A stretch of DNA of 64,000 nucleotides from a virus (IMGVR_UViG_3300045988_155182), one strand, 5' to 3'. Positions 4,668 to 63,757 are shown, numbered from the stretch's first letter. A program made the numbers and translations. The notes: generated from the sequence alone by a model not told the origin.

Positions 4668-4686
4668 TAGGTAAGTATTTACTTAA
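4668..4686. promoter_or_regulatory. Dispersed palindrome copy (TAGGTAAGTA-TT-TACTTAA) between the J-like and stf genes
   Basis: TAAGTATTTACTTA core; the same core recurs at 23354-23375. Confidence 0.45.
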
Positions 4687-4729
4687 TGGCGGGCAAGGAT
4701 AACCCGCCAAATCAAGGAGCATATTCAAC

Positions 4730-7700
4730 ATGTGGTACAGGGAAGGTACTATCACATTTACACAGGGTAGCAATACTCTGGTTGGGGCAGGGACAGCCTG
4801 GAACGTAACAGCTAATGGTGTGTTGCCGGGGATGATCGTCATTGGCCCCGACAATAAGCTGTATGAGATCAAGCGCGTAATAAGCGATACGAATATTGTT
4901 CTCTCAGAACCTTATACCGGCGAAACTCAGTCTGAGGTTCCGTGCCGAATCATTACGACCTATGAAGGCGACTTAACACAGTTTAGCGCGCGCTTTACTG
5001 CGCTAATGTCGCGTATGTCGGCTGATTCCAAGTCCATGCGCAGTTGGTTGACTGCGCTGGATGAGGTGACAATCGAGCGTGAAGACGGTACAGAAGTAAC
5101 CGTTAAGCCGCTAATGCAGATCGTCAACGAGCACAACGAAAACGTTGAGTGGTATAAAAATAACACTGACGCGATTGATGCTGCTGGCGACAAAGCTCGT
5201 GAGGCGGCGGCCAGTGCTGCCGCAGCAGCAGAAAGCGCCAATACCGCTGGAGAAAAAGCCTCTCAAGCGTCTCAAAGTGCATCCGCTGCGGCATCCTCAC
5301 AAAGTGCCGCAAGTGCGAGTGCAACTGCTGCGAAAAAATCTGAAACGAATGCCGCAGCGTCACAACAATCAGCAGCCACTTCTGCATCCACCGCGACCAC
5401 GAAAGCGTCAGAAGCTGCCACCTCAGCCCGGGATGCGGCGGCCTCAAAAGAGGCAGCGAAATCATCAGAAACGAACGCATCCTTGAGCGCCAGTAGCGCA
5501 GCTTCCTCGGCAACGGCGGCAGGAAATTCCGCGAAGGCGGCAAAAACGTCCGAGACGAACGCCAGGTCTTCTGAGACGGCAGCGGGACAGAGCGCCTCAG
5601 CTGCGGCAGGCTCAAAAACAGCGGCTGCGTCGTCTGCCAGTGCCGCGTCAACAAGTGCCGGGCAGGCCTCAGCCAGTGCCACCGCCGCCGGAAAATCGGC
5701 AGAAAGTGCCGCATCGTCTGCTTCAACAGCCACAACGAAGGCTGGCGAAGCCACTGAACAGGCCAGCGCAGCAGCGAGGTCTGCTTCCGCAGCGAAGACA
5801 TCCGAAACGAACGCGAAAGCGTCGGAAACCAGCGCAGAATCCTCAAAAACGGCTGCCGCATCGTCCGCCAGTTCGGCGGCGTCATCGGCATCATCTGCGT
5901 CTGCTTCAAAAGATGAGGCGACCAGACAGGCGTCAGCAGCGAAGGGCAGTGCCACGACGGCATCCACGAAAGCAACAGAGGCGGCAGGCAGTGCGACGGC
6001 AGCATCTCAGAGCAAAACTGCTGCTGAATCCGCTGCGACCCGTGCGGAAGCTGCTGCTGATCGTGCTGAAGAGATTGCCGGTGCAGTTGCGATGGAAGAC
6101 GCAAGCCTTACAACTAAAGGTGTTGTGAAACTTAGCAGTGCTGTTGATAGCACCAGTGAATCGCTGGCCGCAACGCCAAAAGCAGTTAAAGCAGCCAATG
6201 ACAATGCGAATAGCAGGGTGCCATCTAACCGAAAAGTTAACGGAAAAGCACTGACTGCGGATATAACATTAACGCCGAAAGATATTGGTACTTTAAATTC
6301 AGTAACGATGTCTTTCTCTGGCGGGGCTGGGTGGTTCAAACTGGCTACGGTTACCATGCCACAAGCGAGTTCCATCGTTTACATCGCATTGATTGGTGGC
6401 GCTGGTTACAACGTCGGTTCCCCACATCAGGCAGGCATTTCAGAACTGGTTCTACGAGCAGGCAATGGAAACCCCAAAGGAATTACCGGGGCTTTGTGGA
6501 AGCGTACAGCCGTCGGATTAACGAATTTCGCCTGGATCAACACATCCGGCGATACATATGATATTTACGTTGAGATTGGCAATTATGCGACTCGTGTAAA
6601 TATCCATTGGGATTGTACTGCAAATGCGACAGTTTCTATTTATACATCGCCAACATATTCAGCGAGTAAGCCTTCCAGCGTTACCGATGGTGTTGTTTAT
6701 ACGATGTATAGCTCACATCAGAAACCGACGCCGTTAGATATTGGAGCACTGCCAACAACCGGAGGAACAGTTTCAGGTCCGTTGTCTGTTACAGGTGGAT
6801 TAACTGGTTCATTGAATGGTAATGCAAGTACAGCCACGAAATTGCAGACGGCAAGATCTATCGGTGGAGTTGTTTTCGACGGTTCTGCAAATATTAACCT
6901 TCCAGGTGTAAACACTACGGGTAATCAGAACACCACTGGTAATGCTGCAACTGCTACAAAACTTCAGACGGCAAGAACTATCGGCGGCGTGAGCTTTGAT
7001 GGTACTGCGAATATTAATTTGCCAGGTGTTAATACGACTGGTAATCAGAACACAACGGGCAACGCGGCTACTGCTACGAAGTTGCAGACTGCGCGTACTA
7101 TCAATGGGGTGTCGTTTGACGGCTCGGCAAATATTGCCTTGTCGCCAGCAAATATAGGTTGCCCGGCATCTCCTACTGGTTGGCTTGTAACAGGTGATAA
7201 TGGAGCTTCAATAACAACAGAGCAATTAGTGACTCTGCTACGAGATAATGGTGCTTTTAGTGTAAAGGCATGGATAGCGCGTTGTGCCTGGGCGTATGCA
7301 AATAGTGCATCCATACCAGACAGCGAAACAGGATGCGGCATTATTCCACTGGCTGGCGCAGTTATTGAGGTATTTAATAAAGGCAGTAGCTCAAACAATT
7401 ATACGATTCGTATAACAACGGCAACAACGACAGGTGTCTCTGGCGCACTCACTAATGCGGAGTTTGTCTATGTGTTTAATGGGACGACCTATTCACCAGG
7501 ATGGCGCAGAGCGTATAACACTAAAAACAAGCCTACTGCGGCTGATGTCGGAGCTTTACCACTATCTGGAGGGGCGTTAACTGGCGGATTAACTGCTGCT
7601 GGCGAGATAATTTCCAAATCGGCGAATGGTCTGCGCATTGCCTACGGAAACTACGGATTCTTTATCCGAAATGATGGATTGGACACATATTTCATGCTAA

Positions 7701-9181
7701 CAGCATCAGGAGACACATTAGGTTCATGGAACGGTTTGCGACCTATTACAATTAATAATACCAGCGGTTCTGTGTCCATTCGTAATGGACTCAATGTTAC
7801 TGGCGGCATCAATGGTAGTTTGAACGGTAATGCTGCAACTGCAACAAAACTGCAAACAGCACGCACAATAGGCGGAGTGTCATTCGATGGCTCCGCCAAT
7901 ATCAACCTGCCGGGTGTAAACATTGCTGGTAACCAGAACACTACCGGTAATGCAGCGACAGCGACCAAGTTGCAGACAGCATGTACTATCAACGGCGTCT
8001 CGTTTGATGGTTCTAAAGATATTGAACTTAACCCACGGTCTATAGGCACGATCAACTCCACAACAATGTCATTCAGCGGTGGTGCTGGTTGGTTCAAATT
8101 AGCAACGGTAACCATGCCACAGGCGAGTTCTGTTGTTTCAATTACGTTGATTGGTGGCTCGGGATTTAACGTGGGGTCACCTCAACAGGCAGGTATATCT
8201 GAACTTGTTTTGCGTGCAGGTAATGGTAATCCGAAGGGGATTACTGGTGCTTTATGGCAGCGCACATCGACAGGGTTTACAAATTTTGCCTGGGTCAATA
8301 CATCTGGTGATACTTACGATATTTACGTTGCAATCGGAAATTATGCGTGGCGTGTAAATATTCAATGGGATTATACCAGTAATGCCAGCGTGACGATTCA
8401 TACGTCACCAGCATATTCTGCTAATAAGCCGGAAGGGTTAACGGACGGTACAGTTTATTCACTCTATACGCCATCAGAGCAGTTTTATCCGCCTGGCGCA
8501 CCAATCCCGTGGCCATCAGATACCGTTCCGTCTGGTTATGCCCTGATGCAGGGGCAGACTTTTGACAAATCTGCCTACCCGAAACTTGCAGCCGCTTATC
8601 CGTCAGGCGTGATCCCTGATATGCGTGGCTGGACGATTAAGGGCAAACCCGCCAGTGGTCGTGCCGTATTGTCTCAGGAACAGGACGGCATTAAATCGCA
8701 CACCCACAGCGCCAGCGCATCCAGTACGGATTTGGGGACGAAAACCACATCGTCGTTTGATTACGGAACCAAATCCACGAATAACACCGGGGCGCATACC
8801 CATAGTATTAGCGGGACTGCAAATAGTGCAGGTGGGCACCAACACCATAGTTCTGGACCATATGCGAATTCTAATGATGGTGATCTCTTTCCTAACGGTT
8901 ATACCCAGGTTTCAGCCACAAACAAACCAGTTGTACCACGGCAAGGTGGCCAAGGTATGGCCCGTTTATCAGGGAAAACATCATCAGATGGAGCACATAC
9001 CCACTCGTTATCCGGTAGTGCCGCAAGCGCAGGTGCTCACGCACACACTGTTGGTATTGGTGCTCATACGCACTCCGTTGCGATTGGTTCACATGGACAC
9101 ACCATCACCGTTAACGCTGCTGGTAACGCGGAAAACACCGTCAAAAACATCGCATTTAACTATATTGTGAGGCTTGCATGA
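4730..9181 (+). CDS. stf: Side tail fibre protein (lambda Stf-like)
   Basis: 1483-aa ORF with RBS-like context. Ala/Ser-rich SETNA-type low-complexity N-terminal region, internally duplicated domains, and a C-terminus with the Stf/T4 gp37-type His boxes ([52 protein letters not shown]). Confidence 0.9.
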
Positions 9182-10066: not shown

Positions 10067-10088
10067 TTGATATTAAGTAGAGGTGAAC

Positions 10089-10670: not shown

Positions 10671-10803
10671 GGGGCAGATTATATCTGCATTATTAACAAC
10701 GATTAGTTTGCAAGATATATAGTAGGTAAGTACATACCTACTACAAATGGTTAAAATATGATATAAACACGCCATCCCGATTTGACTTTTCATGGAGGAA
10801 AAC

Positions 10804-11127: not shown

Positions 11128-11140
11128 CAGGAGATCAAGG

Positions 11141-11833: not shown

Positions 11834-11834
11834 T

Positions 11835-13053: not shown

Positions 13054-13371
13054 GTATTCCTCCTGATGGCCGTGATGTAGGAAGGCCATCAATCTCCTCT
13101 GTTCAAACTGAGTTTTCGACTCAAAAATTACTTTAAAAGGCTATAGCCCATTACGTGTGCATTATCAAATTGTGTACGGCATAACACCGTACTTGTAATA
13201 TAGAGGTCATTGTTACTTTTTTCAACAGACAAATACAAGCTATGATTGCCAATTGTTAATCACAACCTACCATTTAACCTTTACACCGCAGCCGTAGGCA
13301 TTTAGGCTATATCACATATAAGAAAACAAGTTGTTTCAGACGATAATTATATACGCAAAGGGAACTCTCCA

Positions 13372-16426: not shown

Positions 16427-16488
16427 CCTGCTTCTGTATATAAATACTAAGTTACTTATTATTATTTATACGGAAGCAGGTCTTTTTC
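16427..16488 (+). terminator. Rho-independent terminator closing the two-gene island
   Basis: cctgcttc...gaagcagg stem followed by tcttttt; near-identical hairpin arms recur at 62040-62105. Confidence 0.7.
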
Positions 16489-16590
16489 TATGCCAACTTC
16501 CCAGACACATTCCCTTCCGTTTCCACTTCCAAAAACTGCCACCAGTCGCTATCATCCGCTCATTGCAATAAGTAAGTAACTACCTATCTG

Positions 16591-17340: not shown

Positions 17341-17383
17341 CTAATACTAGAAAACAATTTGTTTAAAAAACAAAGGAAAGCAC

Positions 17384-19984: not shown

Positions 19985-20062
19985 TAACAATCACCTTTAA
20001 AATAAGTAGATGATTACTTATCTTTCTGTGAGAATACTTTCATCTGTTAGCTAGGAGTTGGT

Positions 20063-20839: not shown

Positions 20840-20894
20840 TCTCTCCGCGCGTCGTTTTTTACGCAAATAACGATAGGTAAGTACAAGATTATTT

Positions 20895-23057: not shown

Positions 23058-23344
23058 GCAATTTAACTTCTTGGGACTGGTGGTTGGCCACCTATTTCTT
23101 AGCGGCCGGAGTCGCATTCGCCTTTTACGTAGGTCAGTTAGTCGTAAAACTGCTGCTGATTAAATTTGCCAGTCATAAACGTATCGATGATGGTCTGTGG
23201 CGTCTTGGCACCCTGGTGGAAACTCGCTACGGGCAACTTAAGGAGAACGAAACCATTACTATCCAAGCGAAACGATTCACTGCCACCATCACAAGAACAC
23301 CTAGTCGTAGAGTGGCCTTGATCAAAAAAGTCACAACCGAATAA
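23054..23344 (+). CDS. Hypothetical membrane protein
   Basis: N-terminal hydrophobic helix WDWWLATYFLAAGVAFAFYV. Confidence 0.45.
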   Translation: MSNLTSWDWWLATYFLAAGVAFAFYVGQLVVKLLLIKFASHKRIDDGLWRLGTLVETRYGQLKENETITIQAKRFTATITRTPSRRVALIKKVTTE

Positions 23345-24122
23345 AATTACAATGATAAGTATTTACTTACTTATCTTTTATGTATAAGATGACTTTGTTT
23401 TCGTTGAGACGCGACTGTTTGAACTTAAATACAAGTGCAAACGAAGAAGTCTATCTGGCAGTAGCCTAATAAGCCAAACACCAGCGAGGTCAGTTTCCAG
23501 CCTCGTTACCGAAATGGGATACACTGAGCGAGTGTGATTACAGAACGCAGGAGGGAACATGAATGTTCCCTCCGATGAAGTAACAGAATGGGCGGTTGGT
23601 ATATTTTCAACTCCATATGACTCCCGGATTCTTAGCCACTGACCGCCCATCCTGTTACGTCATTTTGTTCAATTATGTCGTTTATACTGGGTTAAAAAGC
23701 GGCGACGTAGCCCGGCTGGTATGGTTAGCCAGCACACAACGTTGAGGCCATTACATTTTTATCAATTCTAAGGTTCTATTCACAGAGATACCGGCGAGCG
23801 TTGATATGTAACATGTTGGGCAAACATTCAATCGGAGTAGTGGCCTCAACGTTGTGAAGACAGGATTGTTGTGTAGGTTTAACCACTGTTGCCATTGGTG
23901 CCTGTTTTCACAACAAATGATTCCATACATCACATTGTATAAATTACAAAGTAGGTGCTGTCCTCAGAAACATCATCTACTTAAAGAGTTTGCCTTCTAC
24001 TATTGAGCGAAGTCGAAAGCGTCTGGCACTAACGAAAAGTGCAAGTAGCGGTGCGTTTCCTGGCAGAAACTAAACCGTCGCGATTGGCACTGTTGAGTAA
24101 TGAATACAGGCAGTGCTGAATT

Positions 24123-24764: not shown

Positions 24765-25673
24765 TTAATGATTGCCTAGATATGATTTTAGTTCTTCTTT
24801 AATGATTAGTGAGTATTCTAAAATATCACTTAGTAAAAATTTTGCTCTGTTAAAATACCCACCAAAAGAACCTAAAATTTCAGATGGTCTTTCTAAGAGC
24901 ATCACAATATCATCTTCTTGCACTTTAGTAATGTAACTTCTAACAGCTCTTTCTCCAATAACTCTTTTCTTACCGTTTATTTCAGATTCATCTAAAACCT
25001 TATTTATAAATTTTTCTGTATCATTGAATCGTCCACTATTGTGTACTATTGTATGTCTTAGTAGTTCAATTAGCTTGATGTTAAAGCGATAGTTTTTGCC
25101 AATCTTGTTGTTTGTTTCTATCTCTTTGAAGCCAGGTATTTTATTTCTGAAAATTTTAGTTATTTTTTTCGATGGGTTACTTTTTGCTTTTAATAATCTG
25201 TAATAAACTTCCCTTTTCCCAATTTCATCATCTTCAACCTTACCAAAATCACTTGAGGACCATAAATCATTTCGAACACATACAGTATAGACATATATTG
25301 CCTCAATATAGTCTTCCAGTAACTCATAGGCTTCAGTAATAACCCACTGATATTGTTTATTTTTCAAAGTATTACACAATCTTATCTTTTCTTCTAAATC
25401 AATGGCGCTGTTACCTATCTCTAATGTTGAACCTGTATATGGGTTTGAACATAAATGGCGAGCTAACGTTGTGCCACACTTAATCTTAATAGTTTCATTA
25501 ATATTAATAATAGTATCTGGATTCTGTGCATACTCCACTTCTTTAAGAAGACGTTTTATATTTTTCTTTGTTGTATCATTTATCTGATTTAAATAGTCAA
25601 AAAGTAAAGATATTTCTTCTCTAAATTCGTTGTATTTATTTTCAATCAAAGAATCAGACAACTTACCAATCAT
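24765..25673 (-). CDS. A+T-rich hypothetical protein with HEPN-type Rx4H motif (candidate abortive-infection RNase)
   Basis: 302-aa ORF with A+T-rich codon usage unlike its neighbours; motif LLRHTIVHNSG (R-x4-H) in the C-terminal half; isolated between terminator and tRNAs. Confidence 0.5.
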   Translation of the reverse strand: MIGKLSDSLIENKYNEFREEISLLFDYLNQINDTTKKNIKRLLKEVEYAQNPDTIININETIKIKCGTTLARHLCSNPYTGSTLEIGNSAIDLEEKIRLCNTLKNKQYQWVITEAYELLEDYIEAIYVYTVCVRNDLWSSSDFGKVEDDEIGKREVYYRLLKAKSNPSKKITKIFRNKIPGFKEIETNNKIGKNYRFNIKLIELLRHTIVHNSGRFNDTEKFINKVLDESEINGKKRVIGERAVRSYITKVQEDDIVMLLERPSEILGSFGGYFNRAKFLLSDILEYSLIIKEELKSYLGNH

Positions 25674-25846
25674 TAAAACCTCTATAAAATGTACATTTCA
25701 AGGCAATCCTTACTGTAATCTATTGTCGTAATCACTTCAATTGTTTACTAGTCAATCAATAAGTTACTACATACTTATCAAAAAAATCTGTTTGTAGTAT
25801 AGTCTGATATGTTCGAATCAATATTTATAAAGGTATTTGTTAAGTT

Positions 25847-26171: not shown

Positions 26172-26204
26172 AATGATTCCATACCTACTATGTATGGAAT
26201 CATT
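26172..26204. other. lox/dif-like recombination site candidate: 13-bp perfect inverted repeats around a 7-bp spacer
   Basis: aatgattccatac-ctactat-gtatggaatcatt, about 100 bp upstream of the tyrosine recombinase gene; half-site copies at 22904-22916 and 23916-23928. Confidence 0.5.
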
Positions 26205-26302
26205 GCTGAAAATGAGTTACTTTTACTCTTGATCCTATAAGAATCTATGCCTAATATACTGTTTACTTATACAGTGCATCGGCGTAACTCGGTGATTGTC
26301 AT

Positions 26303-27406
26303 ATGAAAAATAGCTTTGACAGAGCACGCGCTGCGGAGAACACCTCAAAAGAGGCGATAGAGTATCTCGAAAGAGCATCTCAAATGCAGGCCGTTATGAT
26401 CTCCCAGGTCAGCAATGACATGAGATTCTCGGACGCATTCATGTTATTCACTCGCTTATCTCTGCTGATAACCAGACGTCGGCCAGAGATCGCTGTTCAT
26501 TGTATTTTGATACATGTTTTGCCGCACATTGCCGATGTAAAAGTAAGTGACATTAATAGGTTCATGGTGAACCAACTGGTCAACCCACTAATACTGGATG
26601 GCAAAATTGTTATGGGCCGCCGCGTTTTCTCTCTGATGAAGCAGTTCCTTAGCTGGTGCGCCTTCCAGGGGATGATAGACGTGTCACCGTTGAACGATAT
26701 GTCACTTAACAAAGTTGCCGGTGGCGCAAAGCCCACACCTCGCGAGCGGAAGCTGACCGACGCAGAGGTATGGGTGTTCTGGAATATATGGGACTACTTC
26801 AATGTGTGTGCTGGTACAAAATGGGCGGCCAGGCTATGTCTTGTATCCGCAAGACGACCTGACGAAGTACTGCGGGCTAAAAAAAGTGAGTTCAATCTTA
26901 AGCGTGGGGTTTGGAATCAAGGCAAGAGGAACAAATCTGCCCGTGAGCATTCTCTGCCTTTAAGCTCATTAATGCGCACTTGTATTGAAGAGTTGTTCGA
27001 ATATGGTAAAGACAGCCAGTGGCTCGTGCCTTCGAATAAAAAAATCGGGAAAGACCTTCCTATGTCTAAAGTGGCAATAGCCCAGGCATTACGTCGTATT
27101 CTGGAACGACCAGAACTGATGGAGCTTGAGCCATTTACACCCCGAGATTTGCGCCGTACTGCGCGTAGTTACTTCCCAGCATTAGGCATAAGCCAGGAGG
27201 TATCACGTAAAATCATGAACCACAGTCTTGAGGGGATAGATCGGGTCTACGACCGGCACGATTATATGGACGAGATGCGAGACGCCTTAGAAAGTTTCTC
27301 GACGTACATCGCATCAATCGTAGAGCAACCGGATTTAGACGAAATTGACCACAAATTTAAGGGAGATCGTCTATCAACAGAGCTTATTCGTGTAAATTTT
27401 TCATAG
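26303..27406 (+). CDS. Tyrosine recombinase / integrase
   Basis: C-terminal catalytic region with RDLRRTARSY and HSLEGIDRVYDRHDY (H-x-x-R...Y pattern); start codon uncertain. Confidence 0.7.
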   Translation: MKNSFDRARAAENTSKEAIEYLERASQMQAVMISQVSNDMRFSDAFMLFTRLSLLITRRRPEIAVHCILIHVLPHIADVKVSDINRFMVNQLVNPLILDGKIVMGRRVFSLMKQFLSWCAFQGMIDVSPLNDMSLNKVAGGAKPTPRERKLTDAEVWVFWNIWDYFNVCAGTKWAARLCLVSARRPDEVLRAKKSEFNLKRGVWNQGKRNKSAREHSLPLSSLMRTCIEELFEYGKDSQWLVPSNKKIGKDLPMSKVAIAQALRRILERPELMELEPFTPRDLRRTARSYFPALGISQEVSRKIMNHSLEGIDRVYDRHDYMDEMRDALESFSTYIASIVEQPDLDEIDHKFKGDRLSTELIRVNFS

Positions 27407-27787
27407 AGACTTTATGGCCTCAACAACCTTTTGTGATGCGCCTTTCTCTTTACCGAATCGCTCGTTATATGCAGCAAGAACCTGTTTTTCGTCCTCGTTA
27501 AGAGGAGCAGTGCCTTCTTTGTATAAAAATGCTGCGAGTTCGGGTTGGCGTTCTTCCAGCACCATCATCATAAGACGACTTGGCTCAATGCCCAGTGCCA
27601 GCGCCAGCGGACGAACCTTATCGATAGGCAAAGGAATTTTGCCGCTTTTAATTAAAGAAAGGTTGTTGGCGTTTTTATACCCAATTGTTTTGGCTATCTG
27701 GGCCTGGCTCATAGGTGAGGATTCAATCAACCCTGCGATAAAAGCAGCGTAGCGACTTTCTATAAATTCAATCTTGTTATCAGACAT
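27401..27787 (-). CDS. XRE-family HTH transcriptional regulator (repressor-like)
   Basis: HTH SQAQIAKTIGYKNANNLSLIKSGK; convergent with the recombinase, divergent from the downstream block. Confidence 0.6.
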   Translation of the reverse strand: MSDNKIEFIESRYAAFIAGLIESSPMSQAQIAKTIGYKNANNLSLIKSGKIPLPIDKVRPLALALGIEPSRLMMMVLEERQPELAAFLYKEGTAPLNEDEKQVLAAYNERFGKEKGASQKVVEAIKSL

Positions 27788-28038
27788 GGTTACAACCTTT
27801 GCGCGTTCAATTCTCTCTGGTAAGTGCTTACCGATATTACATCAAAGGTTAGGGTTGTAAAGCTATTATCATTTTTTTCGATAGGCACTTAAAAGACCGG
27901 TTAAAGGCCATTGCACGGAGAAAAATTAGCCCAAAACAGGTAAGAAAATCAACTTGCATATGATATGAATGTATTCAGTATTGATACAAATTTTAGTAGT
28001 ATTCCTTACCATAGTATAAGTTAGAATGGATTGATTGA

Positions 28039-28349: not shown

Positions 28350-30458
28350 ATGTCTAAAAAACGTTCCATCAAAGAGGTTCAGGACTTCCGTGACAGTGTA
28401 AAACGAGTAGTCGCTCTCCTTTCAGGTAAAAACATCCCTGTTGCAGAACGAGGGGACGACGCTTATGTACGCTATAACGATGATGGAGAGCCAATTCTCG
28501 TAAACATCCCATCAATCCCGGATAACGCAACACCGGCATTGATGAATGCTGTGCGCGGATTTCTCGATCATGAGGTTGCTCACATTTTGTTTACCGATAT
28601 TCGTGTGTCCAACAAAATGAGAGAAAAAGGACGCGTTCCTTCCTGGTCGCTATGGAATGCCTTAGAAGACGTGTTCATCGAGCGAAAAATGGGTCAGGTC
28701 TTTAACGGAACAAGACGTAATCTGATGGCAACTCAGCGCCTTATAATCGAAAAAGTCTTTAAACCAAAGGCTTCAGAGGCTATTGCTTATTGTGGCAAAG
28801 ATCAGCGCGCGCTTTTTCTAAACTTCTTTCTCTGTCCGGTTGTAAGAGCCTGGGATGGCCAAGCACCGTTCGTAGACTTCATGGATGAATATTGGCCTGT
28901 CATTGAGAAACCAATTTCATTATTAAAAGAACATGGTATCGATGTGGCCGTGCGTAACATGTCTTGCACCGAGGATTGTGTAAAGGTGGCTGCGACCATA
29001 GCTAAGATCCTCAAAGACACTGAAAGTGAAAGCAAAGGTAAGGAGTCAGCTCCGGGAAAAACTTCCGATCCTTCAGACGCTGACCAGACGGATGCCTCTG
29101 GAGAAAACAATGAAGACAACGAAGATCATGAGACACCCTCATCGTTAGATAATCACAAATCTATTAAATCAGAGTCACATAGTAAGTACAAACATGATAA
29201 TAACGACAGTGATGACTCAGATAATCCTGAATCATCAGAAACAATATTCGATGATACAGAAAATGATAAAGCGGTATCAGATTCTGATGCTTCTGATAAC
29301 GCGGCGTCAGAATCATTAACCGCTGACCACGAAAAAAGAAAAACGACAGAAGACGGCTCTTCAGACATTCCAACTCCGTCAAAAATGAGTCTGGAAGAGG
29401 CTTTAGAGGAGTTGGATAGCATGGAAGATGAAGTCGGAGGCATGACAGAAGATGCGCTATCCGAAACGATTAAAAGCGAGTTAACAGAAAGCTCGAAAAG
29501 CGAATACAGGCCATACAATCGCTCATACGACTTCATCGGCTCGATTGATCAGGCAGAAGCCCATATCAAACGGCTTATTAAAACATTCTCCGATATTGAT
29601 TTAGGTGGATATCCAATCAGCCGTTATCGCATCGTTCCTGAAGGCAACCAACTCTTCGACAAATATATTGAAAAGCACCTTTCGTCAGGTGTTTCGTCGA
29701 CGCTGGCAAAAGACCTGGAACGTGCAATAGCAAGCAGAAACAGAGTTCAGTTTATACCTGGCCAGCGTCGGGGGCGCATTCATGGTTCAAGTATCTACAG
29801 ATTAACAATGAATGATGATCGCGTGTTTCGTAAAAAAGAAGAATCTAAAGCCGTTAACGCCTGTGTTCAACAAGTGATTGATTTATCGGGTTCAATGAGT
29901 GGCGAAACGATAAAACTAGCTCTTGCAAGTGCATATACCATCGCCGATGCACTTGATCGAATAAATGTTCCCAACATTATCACCGGCTTCACTACATTTG
30001 GCAGTCATATGGCAGCAGGAGAACTTAAGGCTATCAAATATGAGTTCTCTCGCTTTGAATCTTTAATGCTACCTATCATCAAAAATTGGAATGAAAAAGC
30101 AAATTCTCGCGAAGTTCGCTCACGTATGGGGTGCGTAGGCTACACATTCCCACTTCTTAATAACGTGGATGGTGAAAGCATAGCCAGCCTTGCATCGTTA
30201 TTTTCCGGTCGCTTGGAGGACAGGAAGATCATGCTTGTTCTGAGCGATGGCGCGCCGTGGGCTGTTGGGAGAGGTTTTGACGCCCATTTGCGGTCGGTTA
30301 CGAAGCAAATTGAAACGCAGACTGACATTGATTTGATGGCAATTGGCATCATGACTGATGCACCGGAGAGATTTTACGCAAATCATGCCCTGGTAACTAG
30401 TGTTGATAGTCTTGGTTCATCTGTAGTTACTGAACTATCTCGTATCATTTTGAAATAA
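28350..30458 (+). CDS. vWA-domain protein (CobT-like) with N-terminal HExxH motif and acidic linker
   Basis: MIDAS motif DLSGSMSG; HEVAH near the N-terminus; long Asp/Glu/Ser-rich low-complexity middle; paired with a downstream AAA ATPase. Confidence 0.55.
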   Translation: MSKKRSIKEVQDFRDSVKRVVALLSGKNIPVAERGDDAYVRYNDDGEPILVNIPSIPDNATPALMNAVRGFLDHEVAHILFTDIRVSNKMREKGRVPSWSLWNALEDVFIERKMGQVFNGTRRNLMATQRLIIEKVFKPKASEAIAYCGKDQRALFLNFFLCPVVRAWDGQAPFVDFMDEYWPVIEKPISLLKEHGIDVAVRNMSCTEDCVKVAATIAKILKDTESESKGKESAPGKTSDPSDADQTDASGENNEDNEDHETPSSLDNHKSIKSESHSKYKHDNNDSDDSDNPESSETIFDDTENDKAVSDSDASDNAASESLTADHEKRKTTEDGSSDIPTPSKMSLEEALEELDSMEDEVGGMTEDALSETIKSELTESSKSEYRPYNRSYDFIGSIDQAEAHIKRLIKTFSDIDLGGYPISRYRIVPEGNQLFDKYIEKHLSSGVSSTLAKDLERAIASRNRVQFIPGQRRGRIHGSSIYRLTMNDDRVFRKKEESKAVNACVQQVIDLSGSMSGETIKLALASAYTIADALDRINVPNIITGFTTFGSHMAAGELKAIKYEFSRFESLMLPIIKNWNEKANSREVRSRMGCVGYTFPLLNNVDGESIASLASLFSGRLEDRKIMLVLSDGAPWAVGRGFDAHLRSVTKQIETQTDIDLMAIGIMTDAPERFYANHALVTSVDSLGSSVVTELSRIILK

Positions 30459-30473
30459 TTAAAACAGCCTTAA

Positions 30474-30493
30474 TGATAAGTAACTACTTATCA
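30474..30493. promoter_or_regulatory. Perfect copy of the dispersed intergenic palindrome TGATAAGTA-AC-TACTTATCA
   Basis: 9-bp perfect inverted arms; lies between the vWA gene stop and the AAA gene. Confidence 0.5.
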
Positions 30494-37871: not shown

Positions 37872-37988
37872 TTTTTGATAGATAATAAGTAAGTACTGAT
37901 CTATCATTTAACAGCTCGAAAGAGCCACGAATGAACGAAAGCCCAACGCGCATAGCGCCATCGGCCAAATCACAACAAGGAGAAACAC

Positions 37989-41368: not shown

Positions 41369-41393
41369 AAGGCGTCCACAGGACGCCTTTTTT
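41369..41393 (+). terminator. Rho-independent terminator after recA
   Basis: ggcgtcc-aca-ggacgcc then tttttt. Confidence 0.8.
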
Positions 41394-41408
41394 ATCTCTT
41401 GAAAATAT

Positions 41409-41424
41409 ATAAGTACTTACTTAT
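41409..41424. promoter_or_regulatory. Perfect copy of the dispersed palindrome ATAAGTA-CT-TACTTAT
   Basis: Between the recA terminator and the next gene. Confidence 0.5.
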
Positions 41425-41456
41425 TATTTTCGCATAACAACCACATAGGAAAACAC

Positions 41457-42532: not shown

Positions 42533-42582
42533 ATCGCAATTATCTTATTAAGAAAACAATTTGTTTAAAGGGTTAAGAAAAT

Positions 42583-43008: not shown

Positions 43009-43063
43009 TCGCCTATTCATAACTAACAAAATAAGTAAACACTAACCACAAAAGGAAAAACAC

Positions 43064-43339: not shown

Positions 43340-43554
43340 GTTTACAGTAAAATTTATATAAGTTAGTATCTACCTATCATGAAGATTTTTATTGAATACT
43401 TGTTACTCATCGTTTCAATAGCTTTTGTCATCGACTGCATTTTCACTGGTGTCATTCGTAAAGTCTTTTCCCCGGTGCACGACGTAGTCATAAACGCTTT
43501 GGCTATCGTGCTCGTATTTAATTCAGCATTTGATGTAATCAAAGAGGTGGCAGC

Positions 43555-47035: not shown

Positions 47036-47289
47036 CCCTCCAGATCGTATATTGGCGTAGATAGAATCTACGCCCCCTCAAAATAGCTCTCATAGCGTTC
47101 TACAGTGATCCTGTCTTATTTTTAGTCATACAGACAAGCAAAGTTGCGCCACGATAAATAGGTATATACTTACTTATAAATTTTGTATATTAAGGCGCTC
47201 GTTTCATTCCTAACATACCGTTATGCATAGTTGTTTACCTCCTCATTGCTCTTAGAATTTGTATCAAAATAACCACAAAGGAAAAACAC

Positions 47290-51833: not shown

Positions 51834-51906
51834 TTTCATTGATAGGTAAGTGCTTATCTATTAACATGGGCCACTATATTTAGTGGCCCTCTTTATTTGG
51901 TGATAC

Positions 51907-54222: not shown

Positions 54223-54328
54223 CATATGGTGGGGGATATCCCCACCTTCTCTTTGATTTGTAAGCCTTGTTTAAACACATAAGATAACAACTTGTTTAAA
54301 CGCACCAAAAAAGAAAAAGGAAAAACAC

Positions 54329-55548: not shown

Positions 55549-56418
55549 ATGAACTTTACCAAACTGACTGACCACCTGAAACTTGCCACCGATCGACTCA
55601 TTGGATTTAAGCCAGAACCATATGAGTTGCATGAAGGTCATGGTGTAGCTACTGAAAGTATTTACAAGATGGTCGATCAGTTTCATGAACTCTTCCAGCA
55701 TCCGAGACGCGTTATGCCGACACCAGAGCTGCTTCGTCTCCGTGCAAGCCTGATTCATGAAGAAGCTGTAGTGGAAGGTATTCCAGCCGCAATGAATGGG
55801 GATATTGAGCAACTGCTGGATGCAATGGCCGACTTTTTATACGTTGGTGTTGGTACGATGGTCGCCATCAAAGGTGGTATTTCTACCGGCATGACCTATT
55901 ACACGCAGGAACAGAGCATTGATCGCTTTATGCAGACAATTTTTGTGCCTGGTAACACTGTTTTCGATGATATGGCAATGCCATTTCAGGAAGCTCGTGA
56001 GGCGTCATGTATGCTCGAAGAGCTGGCAGATAAACTTGAGAACAAGACTGTTAAGGATTCTGAGCTGATTCAGGAACTGCGCCGTGTCATGAACAAAATC
56101 TATGTGGCGTGCATGATGACCTATCGACTGGCTGATTTCCTCGGTATCAATGTAGTCGAGCTGGTTGGCGAAATTCATCGGTCTAACATGACAAAATTAT
56201 GGCCTGCTGATGTTGAGGAACGTCGCCAGGCTGTGGCCAACTGCAAATACGACTCTTCAGATCTGGGATTCCGCCATGCTGATGGCACCGATAAGATGAT
56301 CGGTTTTCGAATTTCCGATGGAAAGATTCTGAAGTCTCCAACCTATAGTGATGTCGATTTATCCTCCTTTGTTGAGCAAGCTAAAGCCTCAGCAATGTAC
56401 GGAATGATCAAAAAATAA
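55549..56418 (+). CDS. Hypothetical protein (possibly an all-alpha nucleotide pyrophosphohydrolase; uncertain)
   Basis: 289-aa ORF with good RBS inside the nucleotide-metabolism block; acidic helix motifs (EEAVVEG, EQLLDAMADF) only weakly suggestive. Confidence 0.5.
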   Translation: MNFTKLTDHLKLATDRLIGFKPEPYELHEGHGVATESIYKMVDQFHELFQHPRRVMPTPELLRLRASLIHEEAVVEGIPAAMNGDIEQLLDAMADFLYVGVGTMVAIKGGISTGMTYYTQEQSIDRFMQTIFVPGNTVFDDMAMPFQEAREASCMLEELADKLENKTVKDSELIQELRRVMNKIYVACMMTYRLADFLGINVVELVGEIHRSNMTKLWPADVEERRQAVANCKYDSSDLGFRHADGTDKMIGFRISDGKILKSPTYSDVDLSSFVEQAKASAMYGMIKK

Positions 56419-56589
56419 TTGTAGGTAGTTATCTATCTGTGTATATTGCGTTGGCGCGTTAAATTTCTGAAACAACTATTCGTTTTTGGTGGCCTATGGC
56501 CACCATTTTTTTATCTGTCTGGTCTTGTTCTCTCAATAAATGTAAACTCACGCAATGAATAAGTGGTTACTTATCTTTGTGAGGTTTTT

Positions 56590-57693: not shown

Positions 57694-57694
57694 T

Positions 57695-59225: not shown

Positions 59226-59286
59226 AAATTGTTCGCCTCTTCGACATTGCGACAATAAAACTCTCAAAATGGGTTAAGGATAAAAA

Positions 59287-59706
59287 ATGTTTAGTGAAAT
59301 GTTGCTTGAAGATGAACTGGATCGGAAAACAACAGAGGCTTTGATTCGTGTAGCGGACGAACATTCCCGGTCGCTTATGAGCGATCGAGAGGCTCGTCTG
59401 GCTATTCGTGCCATATTCGAAACTGCGCAGGGGCTTGTTGGTACACAAGTGGGTGAAGCCATTAACATCGCCATGTCTCAGTTCAGTGAAGGCAGTAAAA
59501 AGCCTCTGTTTCCTATGCATTTGATGCTGGCTGGTGGCACGGTGCTTTATATCTCTGTTTGTCTGGATAGCAACCAAATCAATATTCTCAACACTGTGTC
59601 AGGTAAGTGGAAAGATCCGATTGTCTGTGAAACCAGTGAAGAAACTTTGAAAAAAGCGGCTCAATTTGTACGTAGCGCACTACTTAAGGGCGCTAAGAAG
59701 TTGTAA
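59287..59706 (+). CDS. Hypothetical protein
   Basis: 139-aa ORF with AAGGA RBS. Confidence 0.45.
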   Translation: MFSEMLLEDELDRKTTEALIRVADEHSRSLMSDREARLAIRAIFETAQGLVGTQVGEAINIAMSQFSEGSKKPLFPMHLMLAGGTVLYISVCLDSNQINILNTVSGKWKDPIVCETSEETLKKAAQFVRSALLKGAKKL

Positions 59707-59715
59707 GGAGTTCTG

Positions 59716-60273
59716 ATGACAACGATTGTTGCAGGCATCGATATCGAGTCTACGGGACTGGATTTCCTTGCTGGTCATAAAATTATTGAAATCGCAATTA
59801 CCCGCTATGAACTGGAGACACAGAGACATATTGATAGTCTGGAGATGCGTTTTAACCCTCGCAGAAACATAGATCCGAAAGCTCAAGCCGTTCATGGCAT
59901 TTCATTGGAACAGCTCGCAGCTGAACCTTTGTTGTCAAATCATGCCAGCGAAATTGGCGCTTATATGGGGGCATGTAGTGTGTGGGTTGCTCATAACGGC
60001 GAAGCATTTGATATACCATTTATTCGACACGAGTTTTCAGGGTATGGAGTAAGACTGCCAGAAGTTCCTGTTATAGATACTATGTTATCGGGATTGTGGG
60101 CCACAGAAGACGGTAAACGTCCCCGCCTTGAAGAGTTGGCCTTCTCTCTTGGCTTTATATACGATCATGCCAAAGCACATAGTGCCTTATATGACACAAA
60201 CTTAATGATGCAATGCTTCTTTAAGGCACGTAATAAGTACGGATTTTTTAAATTACCCTCTGAAATTGTGTAA
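59716..60273 (+). CDS. dnaQ: DEDD-family 3'-5' exonuclease (DnaQ/epsilon-like proofreading subunit)
   Basis: Exo I GIDIESTG, Exo II VAHNGEAFDIPF, Exo III HSALYD; AAGGAG RBS. Confidence 0.8.
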   Translation: MTTIVAGIDIESTGLDFLAGHKIIEIAITRYELETQRHIDSLEMRFNPRRNIDPKAQAVHGISLEQLAAEPLLSNHASEIGAYMGACSVWVAHNGEAFDIPFIRHEFSGYGVRLPEVPVIDTMLSGLWATEDGKRPRLEELAFSLGFIYDHAKAHSALYDTNLMMQCFFKARNKYGFFKLPSEIV

Positions 60274-60277
60274 AACA

Positions 60278-60315
60278 AAAGCCTACTTTAAAAAGTTTAA
60301 AGTAGGCTTTCTTTT
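60278..60315 (+). terminator. Rho-independent terminator
   Basis: aaagcctactttaa-...-ttaaagtaggcttt stem followed by a T-rich tract. Confidence 0.75.
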
Positions 60316-60431
60316 AAAGAACAGTCGCCTTTTAATCATTTCCTGCCTGTATTTAATACTTTTCCGCCTGATAGGTTTAGTCAAAATGTAGCCATCGAAA
60401 CGCAAATGTAACCAAACAGAAGGAGACTTAC

Positions 60432-61241
60432 ATGAGTTCGGTTGAAAATGTAATGACAAATGATGATCTGGACGAGCTGACAGCCATGTTGCAATCACTT
60501 GATGAACCAGTAAAAAAAGCTGCACAGGTTGAAAATACTGATGATATTGACGATCTGCTGCTCGGCCTAGATGCTGGCGTAGCCATGAGTTCTGATGATG
60601 TTGCCGAAGAACTGTTCAATGAAGAAAAAGCAGGTGATTTCAGCTCTGCTTTAAATGAGTTGGAGTTAGCGCATGAGCCTATAAACGTAATTAACGCTGA
60701 AAGTGTTGAAGCTGCCGAAAACGAGCCAGAACAATTGGGATTTATTGAGGTTGAAGAGTGTGTTGAGGTTAATGATGAATTAAAAGTTCAACAGTCAAAT
60801 GATAGCAATACAAATAAAAAAGCTCGTACTGCAAGAGGTCCTCGTTTTACTTTAAGTGATAAAGATGATTCGTTTTTCAATAAAGCGGGCTTAGAAAAAG
60901 ATATTTTCTTAGACGCTTACGATAACGCGCCTGTCAAAGCAAAGGATAAGATATTAAACCTTCTTAATTGGTTTAGCGGAGGTCCAGATATTAGTGTTTA
61001 CACGGTAATTTCCATGAGACACCTTCTCACAGAAAAGAAGGCTACAAGTAATAGTATTAAGATTGCTTTAATGAGCAATCCAGAAAAACCGTATCCGCTT
61101 AACACTGCGTCAACTCAGGCTGGGCAAATGATGGCTGTATTTCCAGCGACAGGAATTGCCGTTAGAGACGGTGGAAATCTAACATTGAACGAAGAATCAC
61201 CGATCGTTAAGAAGTTTGTCGCGGAGTACACTATTGGATGA
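60432..61241 (+). CDS. Hypothetical acidic protein
   Basis: 269-aa ORF with AGGAG RBS and a strongly acidic N-terminal third. Confidence 0.5.
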   Translation: MSSVENVMTNDDLDELTAMLQSLDEPVKKAAQVENTDDIDDLLLGLDAGVAMSSDDVAEELFNEEKAGDFSSALNELELAHEPINVINAESVEAAENEPEQLGFIEVEECVEVNDELKVQQSNDSNTNKKARTARGPRFTLSDKDDSFFNKAGLEKDIFLDAYDNAPVKAKDKILNLLNWFSGGPDISVYTVISMRHLLTEKKATSNSIKIALMSNPEKPYPLNTASTQAGQMMAVFPATGIAVRDGGNLTLNEESPIVKKFVAEYTIG

Positions 61242-61424
61242 CGTTCCCCTACTGAAAATAAAGCCCATAGAGAGCTTTATAGTGCTGGGCAAGCCAATCA
61301 CATACCCAGCACCACAAAAACGCGCCAGAGAGCTTCTCGTTTGCATTTCTGGCGTGTTTTATTTGATTGCCAGACATAAAATCAAATGCAAAAATAGGTA
61401 TTTACTTACCTATCGAGAAAGAAG

Positions 61425-62018
61425 ATGATTGCAGCCGAAAAAATCAAACAGCGAAAGCGCGACAACTCTCTTCGTGACCTCTGGAGAACACCTGACTGGC
61501 TGTTTTCTGCCATTCAACGTTATCTTGGGGTGACATTTGATGTTGACGTTGCCTGCAACAAGGACAATGCAAAGCTGCCTAATTTCATAGGCGTTGAGCG
61601 TGATGCTTTGAAATCTGAATGGGGACAGCCAGGTACAATTGCCTTCCTCAATCCCCCCTACTCCAAAATCTCCCCCTGGATTGATGCGGCTATACGTGAG
61701 CAGGCTCGCGGAGTTACAACAGTGATGCTAATTCCTCAATCCCTAGATACAAAGTGGTATGAGCGTGCAACAGAGTGTGCGAATGAGACGATTATTCTGT
61801 CTGGTGGCCGCGTAGCGTTTGTCGAGCCTGACGTCAATCTGGGTCAGGTAGAAGTAAACATCAACCCAGGTGGCAGTATGCTCGTTGTTTTTCGAGGATT
61901 CTGTCAGGACGCTGGGCACTCTATAAGCAAGATCCCTTTGGACGTCATGAAAAGTCTGGGAGGGTATGATCCTGCGAATGTGATCAGGAAAAAAAGACCA
62001 TCAAAGAAGGCTGCTTAG
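61425..62018 (+). CDS. DNA N6-adenine methyltransferase (phage Dam-like)
   Basis: Catalytic NPPY motif (LNPPYS) and WRTPDWLF block. Confidence 0.7.
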   Translation: MIAAEKIKQRKRDNSLRDLWRTPDWLFSAIQRYLGVTFDVDVACNKDNAKLPNFIGVERDALKSEWGQPGTIAFLNPPYSKISPWIDAAIREQARGVTTVMLIPQSLDTKWYERATECANETIILSGGRVAFVEPDVNLGQVEVNINPGGSMLVVFRGFCQDAGHSISKIPLDVMKSLGGYDPANVIRKKRPSKKAA

Positions 62019-62039
62019 TTTGTTCTGGCGTCTGTAATT

Positions 62040-62105
62040 AGCCTGCTTCTGTATATATAAATAACTACATATTAATTATTAATATACGGAAGCAGGCTGT
62101 TTTGT
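62040..62105 (+). terminator. Rho-independent terminator; stem nearly identical to the one at 16427
   Basis: agcctgcttc...gaagcaggct followed by gttttgt. Confidence 0.7.
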
Positions 62106-62203
62106 ATCAGAGACTCCAGACCTGAACATCACTACAGAATCCACTAGAACCCCTTCCCAGACGCTTTAAAATCGATTTTATGAATCACTTTAAGGAAACT
62201 AAC

Positions 62204-62434
62204 ATGTCATACCCGACTAATGTCGTTGCGCTCGTAGAGAGCGATTTTCTGGCCCAGGCCCGTGAAATGATGAAAGATCGCGAGCAGGCTTTCAACTTGT
62301 ACGAATGGGCAATTAAGTGCTTGCATCTTGGGGAGCATCGCGAACTTGTTGAACAGCTTTTAGGTGAGTTGATCAACGAGGTGTTTGCCTTGAATGTTCA
62401 ACTACATGGTCGAGAAAATAATCAATCGAAATGA
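62204..62434 (+). CDS. Hypothetical small protein
   Basis: AAGGA RBS 7 nt before the ATG at 62204. Confidence 0.4.
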   Translation: MSYPTNVVALVESDFLAQAREMMKDREQAFNLYEWAIKCLHLGEHRELVEQLLGELINEVFALNVQLHGRENNQSK

Positions 62435-63018
62435 TAGATAAGTACAAACTATTCATAAAGTGAATTGTAAGTGCTAAGATCTGATAGTTTCCAGTCGTAG
62501 ACTGGAGACTCGACCTGATGGGTGGGGGTAAGCGTCACTGGCGTCAGGTTTAAAAAAGCTCACTACCAGCGTAGAACCGGTGCCGTTTAGGTGTCGGGGA
62601 AGGGGGAACCAAAGTGAGCGGAGACAAGGGTCACTTTATGATTGTCGAGTCTGGGGTGTTTCGAGAGGTTGAATCCAGTACTCCCCTTCATAAAGTGTGG
62701 GAAGATCTCGGTTCTGGGGTGCTGTCATCCATAACTTCCCAAGTCTAAGCTGGCAGTAGACTTAGGCCATAACTTTTTCAGGTTATGAAACGACCAGGTT
62801 GGTGAGGGATTTTTATACTCACCTCCCTGGGAGAGTATTACCTGAAAAGACAACCTCTCACTTCGTTCGAGGTGAACTTCACTCACTTCGTTCGTTCAGT
62901 TCAGGTTTATAAAAACCTGTTCTGGGAAGTAATTTGTTTATTTTAATAATTATTAACACGCACGCGTGTGCGCACGCGCGAGGAAAAAATCGGCGCGGCG
63001 CTTGATTCAGGAGTTTAT

Positions 63019-63609
63019 ATGACGACGAAGACACCAGCCCGATCGCAAGAAAAAACTCGCAAAAAAGCCAAAAACAAAAATTCTCCCCGCACCAATTCCA
63101 CAACGCCTGTCGTAGAGTTCAATCCCCAGCTTAAAACCGTGAAAATCTTCAGTGATGGCTCTTGCCTTAAAAATCCGGGTGGCCCGGGCGGTTACGGTAT
63201 AGTTCTCCAGTATCGTGGTGAGGAACGCGAGTTCTCAGATGGTTTTCATAGCACCACCAATAACCGCATGGAGATGATGGGGGCACTTATCGGGCTGGAG
63301 CGTTTGAAATATCCATGCAACGTTATTTTGCACTCTGATAGCCAGTATCTGAAAAACGGCATGACACAGTGGATGAAATGGTGGAAACGCAATGGATGGG
63401 TGACTTCTGACAAAAAACCGGTAAAGAATGTTGATCTGTGGAAGCGTCTGGATGAGGCCGCAAGTCGACATAATGTTCGCTGGAAGTGGGTTAAAGGCCA
63501 CGCCGGGCATCGTGAAAATGAAATATGTGATCGACTCGCGAAGATCGCAGCTTTTTCCGCAGCAGATATGCCTCACAAGAAAGATATTGGTTTTGTTTAT
63601 AACAAATAG
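63019..63609 (+). CDS. rnhA: Ribonuclease HI
   Basis: AGGAG RBS before the ATG at 63019; [17 protein letters not shown]...[11 protein letters not shown]...SDSQYL...[15 protein letters not shown] matches RNase HI catalytic blocks. Track start at 62968 is an in-frame extension through an alternating Pu-Py tract. Confidence 0.9.
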
Positions 63610-63757
63610 TAAGTAAGTGTTTACCTATCATTTTAAATCATGTATCTTATCGGCGTCAGGATGACAATGTGTCGGTAAGACACAGTTCCAGGATGGAACG
63701 AGAAAGGCGGCTGGCAATCGCCAGCCGCAACTCTTTCTGACACTGGATGGAGTCCAC

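Follow-up and report, generated by a model that had tools for sequence, protein, structure and literature searches.

The plasmid prophage P1 is controlled by a single repressor, C1, which acts at more than 12 scattered operators overlapping lytic promoters and whose own gene is operator-controlled. C1 binds its asymmetric 17-bp sites as a monomer, and the structural genes of P1 are under Lpa-dependent late promoters. Dispersed repressor sites are also found in the mycobacteriophages L5 and Bxb1, where 24-34 stoperators lie in short gaps of the early and late operons; these are asymmetric 13-bp sequences that block elongation in an orientation-dependent manner. The repressor of the Streptomyces phage phiC31 has many copies of a conserved palindromic operator at early promoters. 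Here we describe a family of dyads in a 64,000-nucleotide stretch of viral DNA (IMGVR_UViG_3300045988_155182, referred to as the window), which shares ~98% identity with Escherichia phage Cyrano (OV696614; the phage-plasmid pLF82 carried by E. coli LF82) and ~80% with Salmonella phage SSU5, and which falls within the group of SSU5/pHCM2/pMT1-type phage-plasmids. We consider it likely, with a probability of about 0.8, that these 20-bp dyads are the operators of a dimeric XRE-type helix-turn-helix (HTH) repressor encoded at 27401-27787, which would silence lytic promoters in the plasmid state.

The arrangement is like that of P1 C1 in that many dispersed operators (29 sites in Cyrano) would lie over the lytic promoters of a plasmid prophage. 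By description it is set apart from P1 by the symmetric 20-bp dyad, by a 128-amino-acid XRE-type candidate unrelated to C1 and by the presence of sites inside the structural block as well. As with stoperators, the sites are scattered in intergenic gaps, but they are symmetric and 13 of 20 in the window are at promoter-like sequences. The phiC31 system differs in repressor family, host promoters and sequence, and phiC31 is not a plasmid prophage. Lambda CI, 434 repressor, P22 C2 and the C-proteins have the same fold class, dyad operators over promoters and autoregulation at their own promoters; however, lambda/434-type repressors act at one or two clusters (OL/OR), while here ~30 single operators are spread over ~100 kb. 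Unlike the cleavable repressors of the LexA/CI type, the XRE protein is without an S24 autocleavage domain. The host LexA regulon also combines a single repressor with dispersed 16-20-bp dyad operators over promoters, but its consensus is CTGT-N8-ACAG, and the window contains one separate LexA-like box at 26259. The dyads can be distinguished from intrinsic terminators and repeats of the repetitive extragenic palindrome type by their A+T-rich arms, the lack of a T-run and the equal numbers of G.T and A.C mismatches. By analogy, the logic appears to resemble that of the P1 C1 operators, the phiC31 conserved inverted repeats and the LexA regulon, with a protein of the family to which the lambda and 434 repressors and the C-proteins belong. 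No prior description of the motif or regulon, or of the wiring of the SSU5-like lysis-lysogeny switch, was found in the searchable literature.

The 20-bp dyad and its enrichment

The dyad ATARGTAAGTACTTACYTAT, which can be written as a binding target as ATAGGTAAGTACTTACCTAT, occurs in 22 copies in the window against ~0.9 expected, almost all of them intergenic. Sites were identified with an iterated, anchored and symmetric position weight matrix (PWM), using a threshold of at least 9 bits and Markov shuffles as background. The matrix converges on the half-sites ATARGTAAGT and ACTTACYTAT placed back to back and recovers 22 window sites against 0.93 in shuffles; site scores are mostly 17-32 bits, and the top score over all shuffles is 16. 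Simpler word counts gave 5 matches to TAAGTA-N(0-6)-TACTTA (0.01 expected) and, allowing up to two mismatches, 22 matches to GATAGGTAAGTA (2.7 expected). The top intergenic 7-mer is ATAAGTA/TACTTAT, with 19 occurrences in 6.1 kb of intergenic DNA against 3 in 57.7 kb of coding DNA.

A preliminary description of this DNA had proposed a family of at least 18 intergenic palindromes with a variable core spacing of 0-6 nucleotides, located after stop codons, upstream of the next gene and beside terminators, and had named a frequency no higher than that of an A+T-rich intergenic background as grounds for rejecting it. The motif is far above chance expectation, and the family and its placement are borne out by the matrix. 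The variable spacing is only apparent: half-site spacings peak at 2, 6 and 10 because the arms have a 4-nucleotide periodicity (GTAA-GTAA), and a single 20-bp register fits all sites. The 19 coordinates listed comprise 16 clear sites, a moderate one (16446), a weak one (56421) and one that is barely above a half-site (43021, 13.8 bits). The two palindromes called perfect are so, with 9+2+9 symmetry at 30474 and 7+2+7 at 41409. Sites that had not been listed are 25759 (26 bits), 62057 (23 bits), a copy inside cobT at 29145 and a core, GGTAAGTGCTTACC, at 27818-27831.

Over the whole Cyrano genome there are 29 dyad sites, 27 of them within the 13% of the sequence that is non-coding. The modules that contain them are those for structure, tail fibre, lysis, replication and nucleotide metabolism, and no plasmid-maintenance, toxin-antitoxin or integrase gene of this genome is preceded by one. 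The 85-105 kb accessory region has one dyad only, at 105107 in the divergent UvsW/parB gap, and the repressor region of Cyrano has no full-strength site. When the window is compared with SSU5, Klebsiella or pMT1, identity is 89-95% in the dyads and 78-82% in the alignable flanks. The dyad inside cobT is kept in position in Cyrano (43932), SSU5 (43661), Klebsiella (L134:18002) and pMT1 (L137:18497), and Cyrano (3527) and SSU5 (3544) share a second conserved intragenic dyad close to the portal gene's 3' end. Scanning a sequence collection with a 14-base query gave mostly chance matches, and filtering these with the PWM recovered divergent members of the family.

Promoters and the XRE-type candidate repressor

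Since each site is symmetric, its opposite strand can serve as a control for promoter scores. The best sigma70 score is at least 8 for 13 of the 20 window sites on the gene strand and for 4 of the 20 on the opposite strand, and the same test gave 13 against 3 in Cyrano and 11 against 5 in SSU5. The -10 elements lie in two registers, starting either at dyad position 18, so that the dyad fills the -35/-10 spacer (as in TTGAAA-17-TATTAT at 41399-41427), or at about position -3, so that it covers +1 to +20. Two registers suit a steric repressor rather than an activator or a sigma factor. In an independent consensus scan ~24 promoters were predicted on the + strand of the window, of which 9 overlap or abut dyads, which make up ~2% of its length. 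The preliminary description had offered phage-specific promoters as one of two explanations for the palindromes. The sites do mark promoters, but the palindrome itself is not the promoter, as lytic relatives have promoters in the same places without it.

In Rhizobium phage RHph_X66 (59% G+C; X66 below) some sites read CTTGCAAGTAAGTAAGTCCTTACTTACAAT, which is TTGCAA-17-TACAAT with the dyad between the hexamers, while a second class has a conserved GCGCTATAAA box against the left arm. This box is conserved in the Rhizobium relatives before many replication and nucleotide-metabolism genes. In the Rhizobium members, and only in these, cobS is directly followed by a gene for a sigma70-family protein (Sigma70_r2, E=7e-8; X66 L130:14303-14947, L132:39826-40461 and L116:5346-5990), and the box may be the promoter of this sigma protein.

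Expression data for the LF82 lysogen are available for Cyrano (PMC9928086). The genes expressed are toxin-antitoxin modules, CYRAN_43, CYRAN_45 and few others, and apart from CYRAN_81 none of these is a dyad-flanked lytic gene; ciprofloxacin induces Cyrano 39-fold. This pattern fits repression of the dyad-flanked lytic genes. The XRE-family HTH gene of the window (27401-27787, minus strand) corresponds to CYRAN_45, a gene with lysogen expression at 10x above background (PMC9928086), and its 128-amino-acid product is 100% identical to the "putative repressor" of Cyrano. A single-sequence AlphaFold2 model has a five-helix HTH_3-like domain, with a predicted local distance difference test score of 83-92 over residues 11-70, followed by a helical C-terminal part. 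Foldseek searches with the N-terminal domain returned C.AhdI (2.2 A over 62 residues, probability 1.0), the lambda and 434 repressors, SaPI Stl and HigA. An ortholog profile compared with the PDB matched the HTH repressors 2kpj and 8bny (E=0.002-0.005), and the X66 ortholog is above the Pfam HTH_3 cut-off (29.4 > 23).

The control region of this gene contains the motif in a shorter form. A promoter is predicted by the consensus scan at 27834-27861 on the minus strand (TTTACA-16-TAATAT), and the core at 27818-27831, a candidate autoregulatory operator, lies ~30 nucleotides upstream of the XRE start codon, over the predicted transcription start. It is the inner 14 bp of the canonical dyad and reads GGTAAGCACTTACC 2 bp after the -10 element. 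Further GGTAAG/CTTACC half-sites are present at 27939-27944 and 28005-28010 in the divergent XRE/CYRAN_46-like control region, giving, with the core pair, 4 half-sites in 250 bp against ~0.12 expected. In Klebsiella (L134:19435) and pMT1 an equivalent site precedes the XRE start codon by ~30-35 bp. X66, RHEph10, L116 and L009 have a variant dyad whose right arm incorporates a TTGACT hexamer; this dyad is upstream of the XRE gene in the first three and upstream of cobT, at the equivalent position, in L009, where no XRE gene was identified nearby. Acinetobacter has a stack of three dyads ahead of its XRE gene. In the window and six other lineages (Klebsiella, pMT1, X66, L116, RHEph10 and Acinetobacter) the XRE gene thus has a dyad at its own promoter or upstream of it. 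The 20-bp symmetry of the sites is compatible with binding by a dimer of the XRE protein.

The wider lineage can be defined by the markers portal, TerL, major capsid protein, CobT/S and Pol III alpha, which are 30-55% identical among members. It takes in Klebsiella and Yersinia (pMT1) elements, two Rhizobium phage clades, Acinetobacter plasmids, Pseudomonas phage nickie, Xanthomonas JGB6 and Stenotrophomonas BUCTxx99. XRE orthologs lie beside cobT in Cyrano, Klebsiella (56% identical), pMT1 (65%), X66 (29%, E=2e-11), L116 (36%), Acinetobacter (~48%) and RHEph10, whose protein is 40% identical to that of X66. Dyads accompany them in Klebsiella pJN2-26 (13 in 40 kb), pMT1 (7 in 40 kb), X66 (27) and L116. 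Neither dyads nor an XRE ortholog were found in the lytic, syntenic relatives nickie (112 kb), Stenotrophomonas (50 kb) and Xanthomonas (50 kb), and an unbiased dyad census of these three revealed no other dyad family; in nickie, 4 of 6 equivalent intergenic gaps have -10-like or full sigma70-like promoters without a dyad. In a plasmid collection the number of XRE genes matches that of the CobS lineage marker from genus to genus; the respective counts are 348 and 347 for Klebsiella, 230 and 227 for Escherichia, 92 and 92 for Enterobacter, 63 and 63 for Yersinia and 49 and 49 for Salmonella.

Where the protein diverges, the dyad is also different. RHEph10 has no canonical sites and 14 copies of AGTCAATCAATATTGATTGACT in 50 kb, an element with no occurrence in ten shuffles or in Cyrano, X66 or nickie. 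Acinetobacter has 12 sites of AGTCAGTACTGACT, against 0-3 in shuffles, 10 of which are in the 9% of its DNA that is non-coding. When seven orthologs are aligned, three residues at the N-terminal edge of helix 3 follow the operator class: the five proteins paired with the canonical dyad, although only ~27% identical overall, all have Y-[K/S]-N, RHEph10 has W-T-Q and Acinetobacter F-K-R. In the window protein these residues are Y37-K38-N39. The preliminary description had also suggested operators for a phage repressor, with the protein at 27401-27787 as one candidate, and this suggestion has gained ground: orthologs and dyad co-occur and co-vary across nine lineages, the gene's own promoter carries the core, and the promoters lie in two registers. 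The comparative evidence favours repressor operators, and the XRE protein in particular, over the phage-promoter reading.

Competing explanations

There are three other ways in which the dyad might be read. It could be a phage-specific promoter element recognised by a phage activator or alternative sigma factor, as are the Lpa-type late promoters of P1. The sites mark promoter-like regions before lytic genes, many are without a good -35 as is typical of activator-dependent promoters, SSU5 retains the sites without an XRE gene, and the Rhizobium relatives carry the sigma70-family protein after cobS. We nevertheless regard this as quite improbable, since the two registers relative to the -10 are incompatible with the fixed geometry of an activator or sigma factor, Cyrano and SSU5 have the motif but no sigma gene, and lytic relatives of the same gene order keep -10-like or sigma70-like sequences in 4 of 6 gaps although they lack the motif. 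The motif is moreover on the repressor gene's promoter, and no conserved activator tracks it. A phage sigma factor was also rejected as the reader on the grounds of its absence from Cyrano and SSU5. It is very improbable that the palindrome acts at the RNA level, be it as a processing site (for RNase III, for instance), as a terminator-like element or as a translational operator. These intergenic palindromes are transcribed, many of them are found 0-15 nucleotides past a stop codon or a few nucleotides before a ribosome-binding site, and the lineage encodes an FljA-family protein, but G.T and A.C mismatches between the arms are nearly equal in three genomes (19:14, 26:20 and 17:22). This balance indicates that pairing is not under selection in the sense transcript, and the element was therefore treated as a DNA site for protein binding. 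The arm sequence itself is conserved, with an A+T-rich core even in relatives of 58-64% G+C, the A+T-rich stems have no U-tract, true terminators are separate neighbouring hairpins, and copies lie on the XRE promoter, on the opposite strand.

The binder could also be another protein of the lineage, acting instead of the XRE protein or together with it, and candidates are a Cro-like or other small protein encoded next door (CYRAN_46-like), CYRAN_37 and the FljA-family protein CYRAN_114. Cyrano and SSU5 have CYRAN_37 and nickie lacks it, the small gene beside the XRE gene has the same distribution, and CYRAN_114 is a conserved "transcriptional repressor"; in lambdoid phages, repressor and Cro proteins commonly share operators. 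This we judge improbable, as CYRAN_37 and CYRAN_114 are enterobacterial only and are not in the Rhizobium phages that share the motif, the CYRAN_46-like neighbours of Cyrano and X66 are not detectably homologous (CYRAN_46 has no Pfam match), and only the XRE protein shows recognition-helix changes that match the operator variants. As individual candidates, CYRAN_114 was set aside for its restriction to enterobacterial members, where it lies in the accessory region, CYRAN_37 for its absence from Rhizobium phages in a phage-collection search, and ParB for the presence of homologs in the motif-free nickie. A small local comparison gave one marginal match of CYRAN_37 to an X66 hypothetical protein (34% identity over 50 amino acids), which was not recovered in the phage-collection search.

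Several observations count against the XRE protein as repressor at these dyads. Approximately one-third of the window sites have no recognisable sigma70 promoter, and these could have a roadblock role. The Foldseek E-values are weak (0.04-0.4), the Pfam HTH scores of the window protein itself are under the curated cut-offs, and the protein has no S24 cleavage domain, Pfam matching only the HTH and the C-terminal 50 residues being helical. Any gene that always adjoins the XRE gene would have the same phylogenetic profile. Finally, SSU5 has 27 good sites at orthologous positions but no XRE gene.

An early inference from SSU5, that without the gene the XRE protein cannot be the binder, was withdrawn following the wider comparison and the finding that the SSU5 junction is unique. 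None of 822 related plasmids has the tRNA-Asn-to-cobT junction of SSU5, each match ending directly downstream of the tRNA. Among them are Enterobacter plasmids whose flank is 98-99% identical to that of SSU5, one of which, NZ_CP134668, has the XRE gene within the ~5 kb in between. SSU5 came from a virion and has been described as virulent (PMC5427195). Given the unique junction and this isolation as a virulent phage, the best reading of SSU5 is that it lost the repressor gene by a recent deletion and has retained the operators.

The proposed switch and features of the window

The motif, its enrichment, placement, overlap with promoter-like sequences and conservation, and the co-distribution and co-variation with the XRE gene are properties of the sequence, and from them we infer that the XRE protein binds the dyads, that it does so as a dimer, that it represses and that it regulates its own gene. 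As long as the element is a plasmid prophage, ~25-30 dispersed operators over its ~100 kb would be occupied by the repressor. An operator lying over a sigma70-type promoter, either in its spacer or at the transcription start, would occlude RNA polymerase, and the structural, lysis, replication and nucleotide-metabolism operons would be held off. The core across the repressor's own promoter start would be of lower affinity and would provide negative autoregulation, and loss of the repressor would release all the lytic promoters together.

The genes of the window run from tail-tip protein J, tail fibre, lysis genes, toxin-antitoxin and ParA, through DnaB/primase/ligase, a tRNA cluster, the integrase-XRE pair and CobT/CobS, to Pol III alpha, UvsY/gp32/RecA, RepA, SbcCD, ribonucleotide reductase, ThyX and further genes. 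The dyads at 4667-4686 (25.2 bits) and 10722-10741 (24.3 bits) lie upstream of the tail-fibre gene (4730) and of the holin and lysis cassette (10792), respectively. A moderate site at 16440-16459 (17.8 bits) is upstream of the CYRAN_31-like gene and helicase operon, and 16568-16587 (24.4 bits) is directly upstream of the CYRAN_31-like gene. The site at 20002-20021 (25.5 bits) is in a TTTAAA-17-TATCTT spacer upstream of 20063, while that at 20873-20892 (18.6 bits), in which only the left arm is strong, is upstream of 20895 and the ligase gene. The dyad at 23355-23374 (31.6 bits) adjoins the promoter TTGATC-18-TAAAAT (23318-23347) upstream of the tRNA cluster. At 25759-25778 (26.2 bits) a dyad between the 24765-25673 open reading frame on the minus strand and the glutaredoxin gene lies over the -35 of a promoter at 25775-25803. 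The copy within cobT is at 29145-29164 (17.2 bits), and the perfect 9+2+9 palindrome TGATAAGTAACTACTTATCA at 30472-30493, in the cobT-cobS gap, overlaps the promoter TTGAAA-16-AATGAT.

In the second half of the window, 37885-37904 (29.0 bits) is in a TAGATA-17-TATCAT spacer upstream of the gp32-like single-stranded-DNA-binding protein gene, and 41405-41424 (30.0 bits) fills the spacer of the promoter at 41399-41427 right after a terminator at 41369-41389. The sequence at 43031-43050 (13.8 bits) is a weak site or half-site, and 43358-43377 (25.9 bits) overlaps promoters at 43341-43369 and 43353-43380. A dyad at 47158-47177 (27.9 bits) is upstream of sbcD. Upstream of nrdA, 51842-51861 (29.9 bits) lies inside the promoter TTGATA-17-TAACAT (51839-51867), which is followed by a hairpin at 51868-51889. 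A weak site at 56417-56436 (14.9 bits) comes after the MazG-like gene and 56555-56574 (20.2 bits) is upstream of thyX. The dyad at 61394-61413 (29.1 bits) is directly downstream of a TG-extended promoter (61367-61395) and upstream of the adenine methyltransferase gene, those at 62057-62076 and 62434-62453 both score 22.8 bits, and 63609-63628 (27.4 bits) lies after the RNase H gene and upstream of the next gene.

Two of these sites belong to compact promoter/terminator modules, at 51839-51889 and at 41369-41427. In the former a terminator-like hairpin starts directly after the -10, so that transcripts from upstream would stop there, while those from its own promoter would start inside the stem and escape. 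RHEph10 has a similar module, in which the -10 (TACAAT) is followed at once by a hairpin, as does nickie, with a hairpin, a TATAAA box and then a terminator.

Other features of these elements were noted. A second dyad family, AGAAAACAAnTTGTTTAAA, is directional, unrelated to the first and present in 4 copies in the window against 0.2 expected (13321-13339, 17349-17367, 42551-42569 and 54282-54300), lying 14-33 nucleotides upstream of the start codons of parA, dnaB, the 42583 open reading frame and nrdB; the AAACAA..TTGTTT dyad occurs at 9-11 loci in Cyrano and SSU5 against at most 3 in shuffles. Outside the window, Cyrano encodes a full-length FljA-family protein at 100780-101301 (L003:780-1301; Pfam Flag1_repress, E=1e-80), which is conserved among the SSU5-like elements of enterobacteria and shares ~40% identity with phase-1 flagellin repressors encoded on chromosomes. 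Salmonella FljA binds fliC mRNA, and the Cyrano protein may be a lysogenic-conversion gene targeting host flagellin. Next to the immunity region, a 302-amino-acid open reading frame at 24765-25673 on the minus strand (phrog_35492, function unknown) stands in place of CYRAN_43, which is the top-expressed Cyrano gene in the lysogen at 723x background (PMC9928086). This variable slot is a candidate for defence or exclusion cargo. In pMT1 the F1 capsule operon (caf1R, caf1M, caf1A and caf1; L137 20001-27373) is inserted directly beside the integrase-XRE module, and the plasmid keeps the XRE ortholog, its promoter operator and 7 dyads.

The integrase gene (26303-27406, plus strand) converges on the XRE gene with a 6-nucleotide overlap. 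Upstream of it, at ~26175-26207, is a near-perfect inverted repeat, AATGATTCCATACCTAC-TAT-GTATGGAATCATT, which is kept in Klebsiella and pMT1 and resembles a lox/dif-type core site for the tyrosine recombinase, perhaps one for plasmid multimer resolution. A LexA-box-like sequence, TACTGTTTACTTATACAGTG, lies at 26259-26274 (context 26257-26276), 28 nucleotides before the start codon of the integrase gene. No other CTGT-N8-ACAG occurs in the window, where 0.85 would be expected by chance, and the position of the box is kept in Cyrano, Klebsiella (TACTGTGTTTATATACAGTA) and pMT1, with constant arms and a varying spacer. It is a possible SOS input to the switch.

A more far-reaching reading, which we regard as unlikely in its entirety, is that the network is of ancient origin, confers immunity throughout the lineage and has co-evolved into three or more specificity classes. 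Enterobacterales and X66-type Rhizobium elements would have GTAAGTAC, Acinetobacter GTCAGTAC and RHEph10 GTCAATCAAT. The conserved LexA box would drive the integrase gene, transcription of which would run into the overlapping repressor gene, so that induction would come about by transcriptional interference or antisense transcription, with neither cleavage of the repressor nor a classical antirepressor involved. Sites of the promoter-less third would be elongation roadblocks, and in Yersinia pestis pMT1 the intact repressor and operators would keep shaping the expression of the virulence plasmid.

The phage-plasmids concerned are numerous, with ~800-1000 records of SSU5/pHCM2/pMT1/pKpn-type elements in the plasmid collection. 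They are widespread in clinical Enterobacterales, include the backbone of Y. pestis pMT1 and are reported to carry resistance genes. If the dyads are the operators of the XRE protein, they would give a regulon map of the promoters that are held off, together with the likely master repressor. The operator variant and the recognition-helix residues would then provide an immunity-group rule by which coexistence or superinfection could be predicted, and the behaviour of SSU5 as a virulent phage would be explained.

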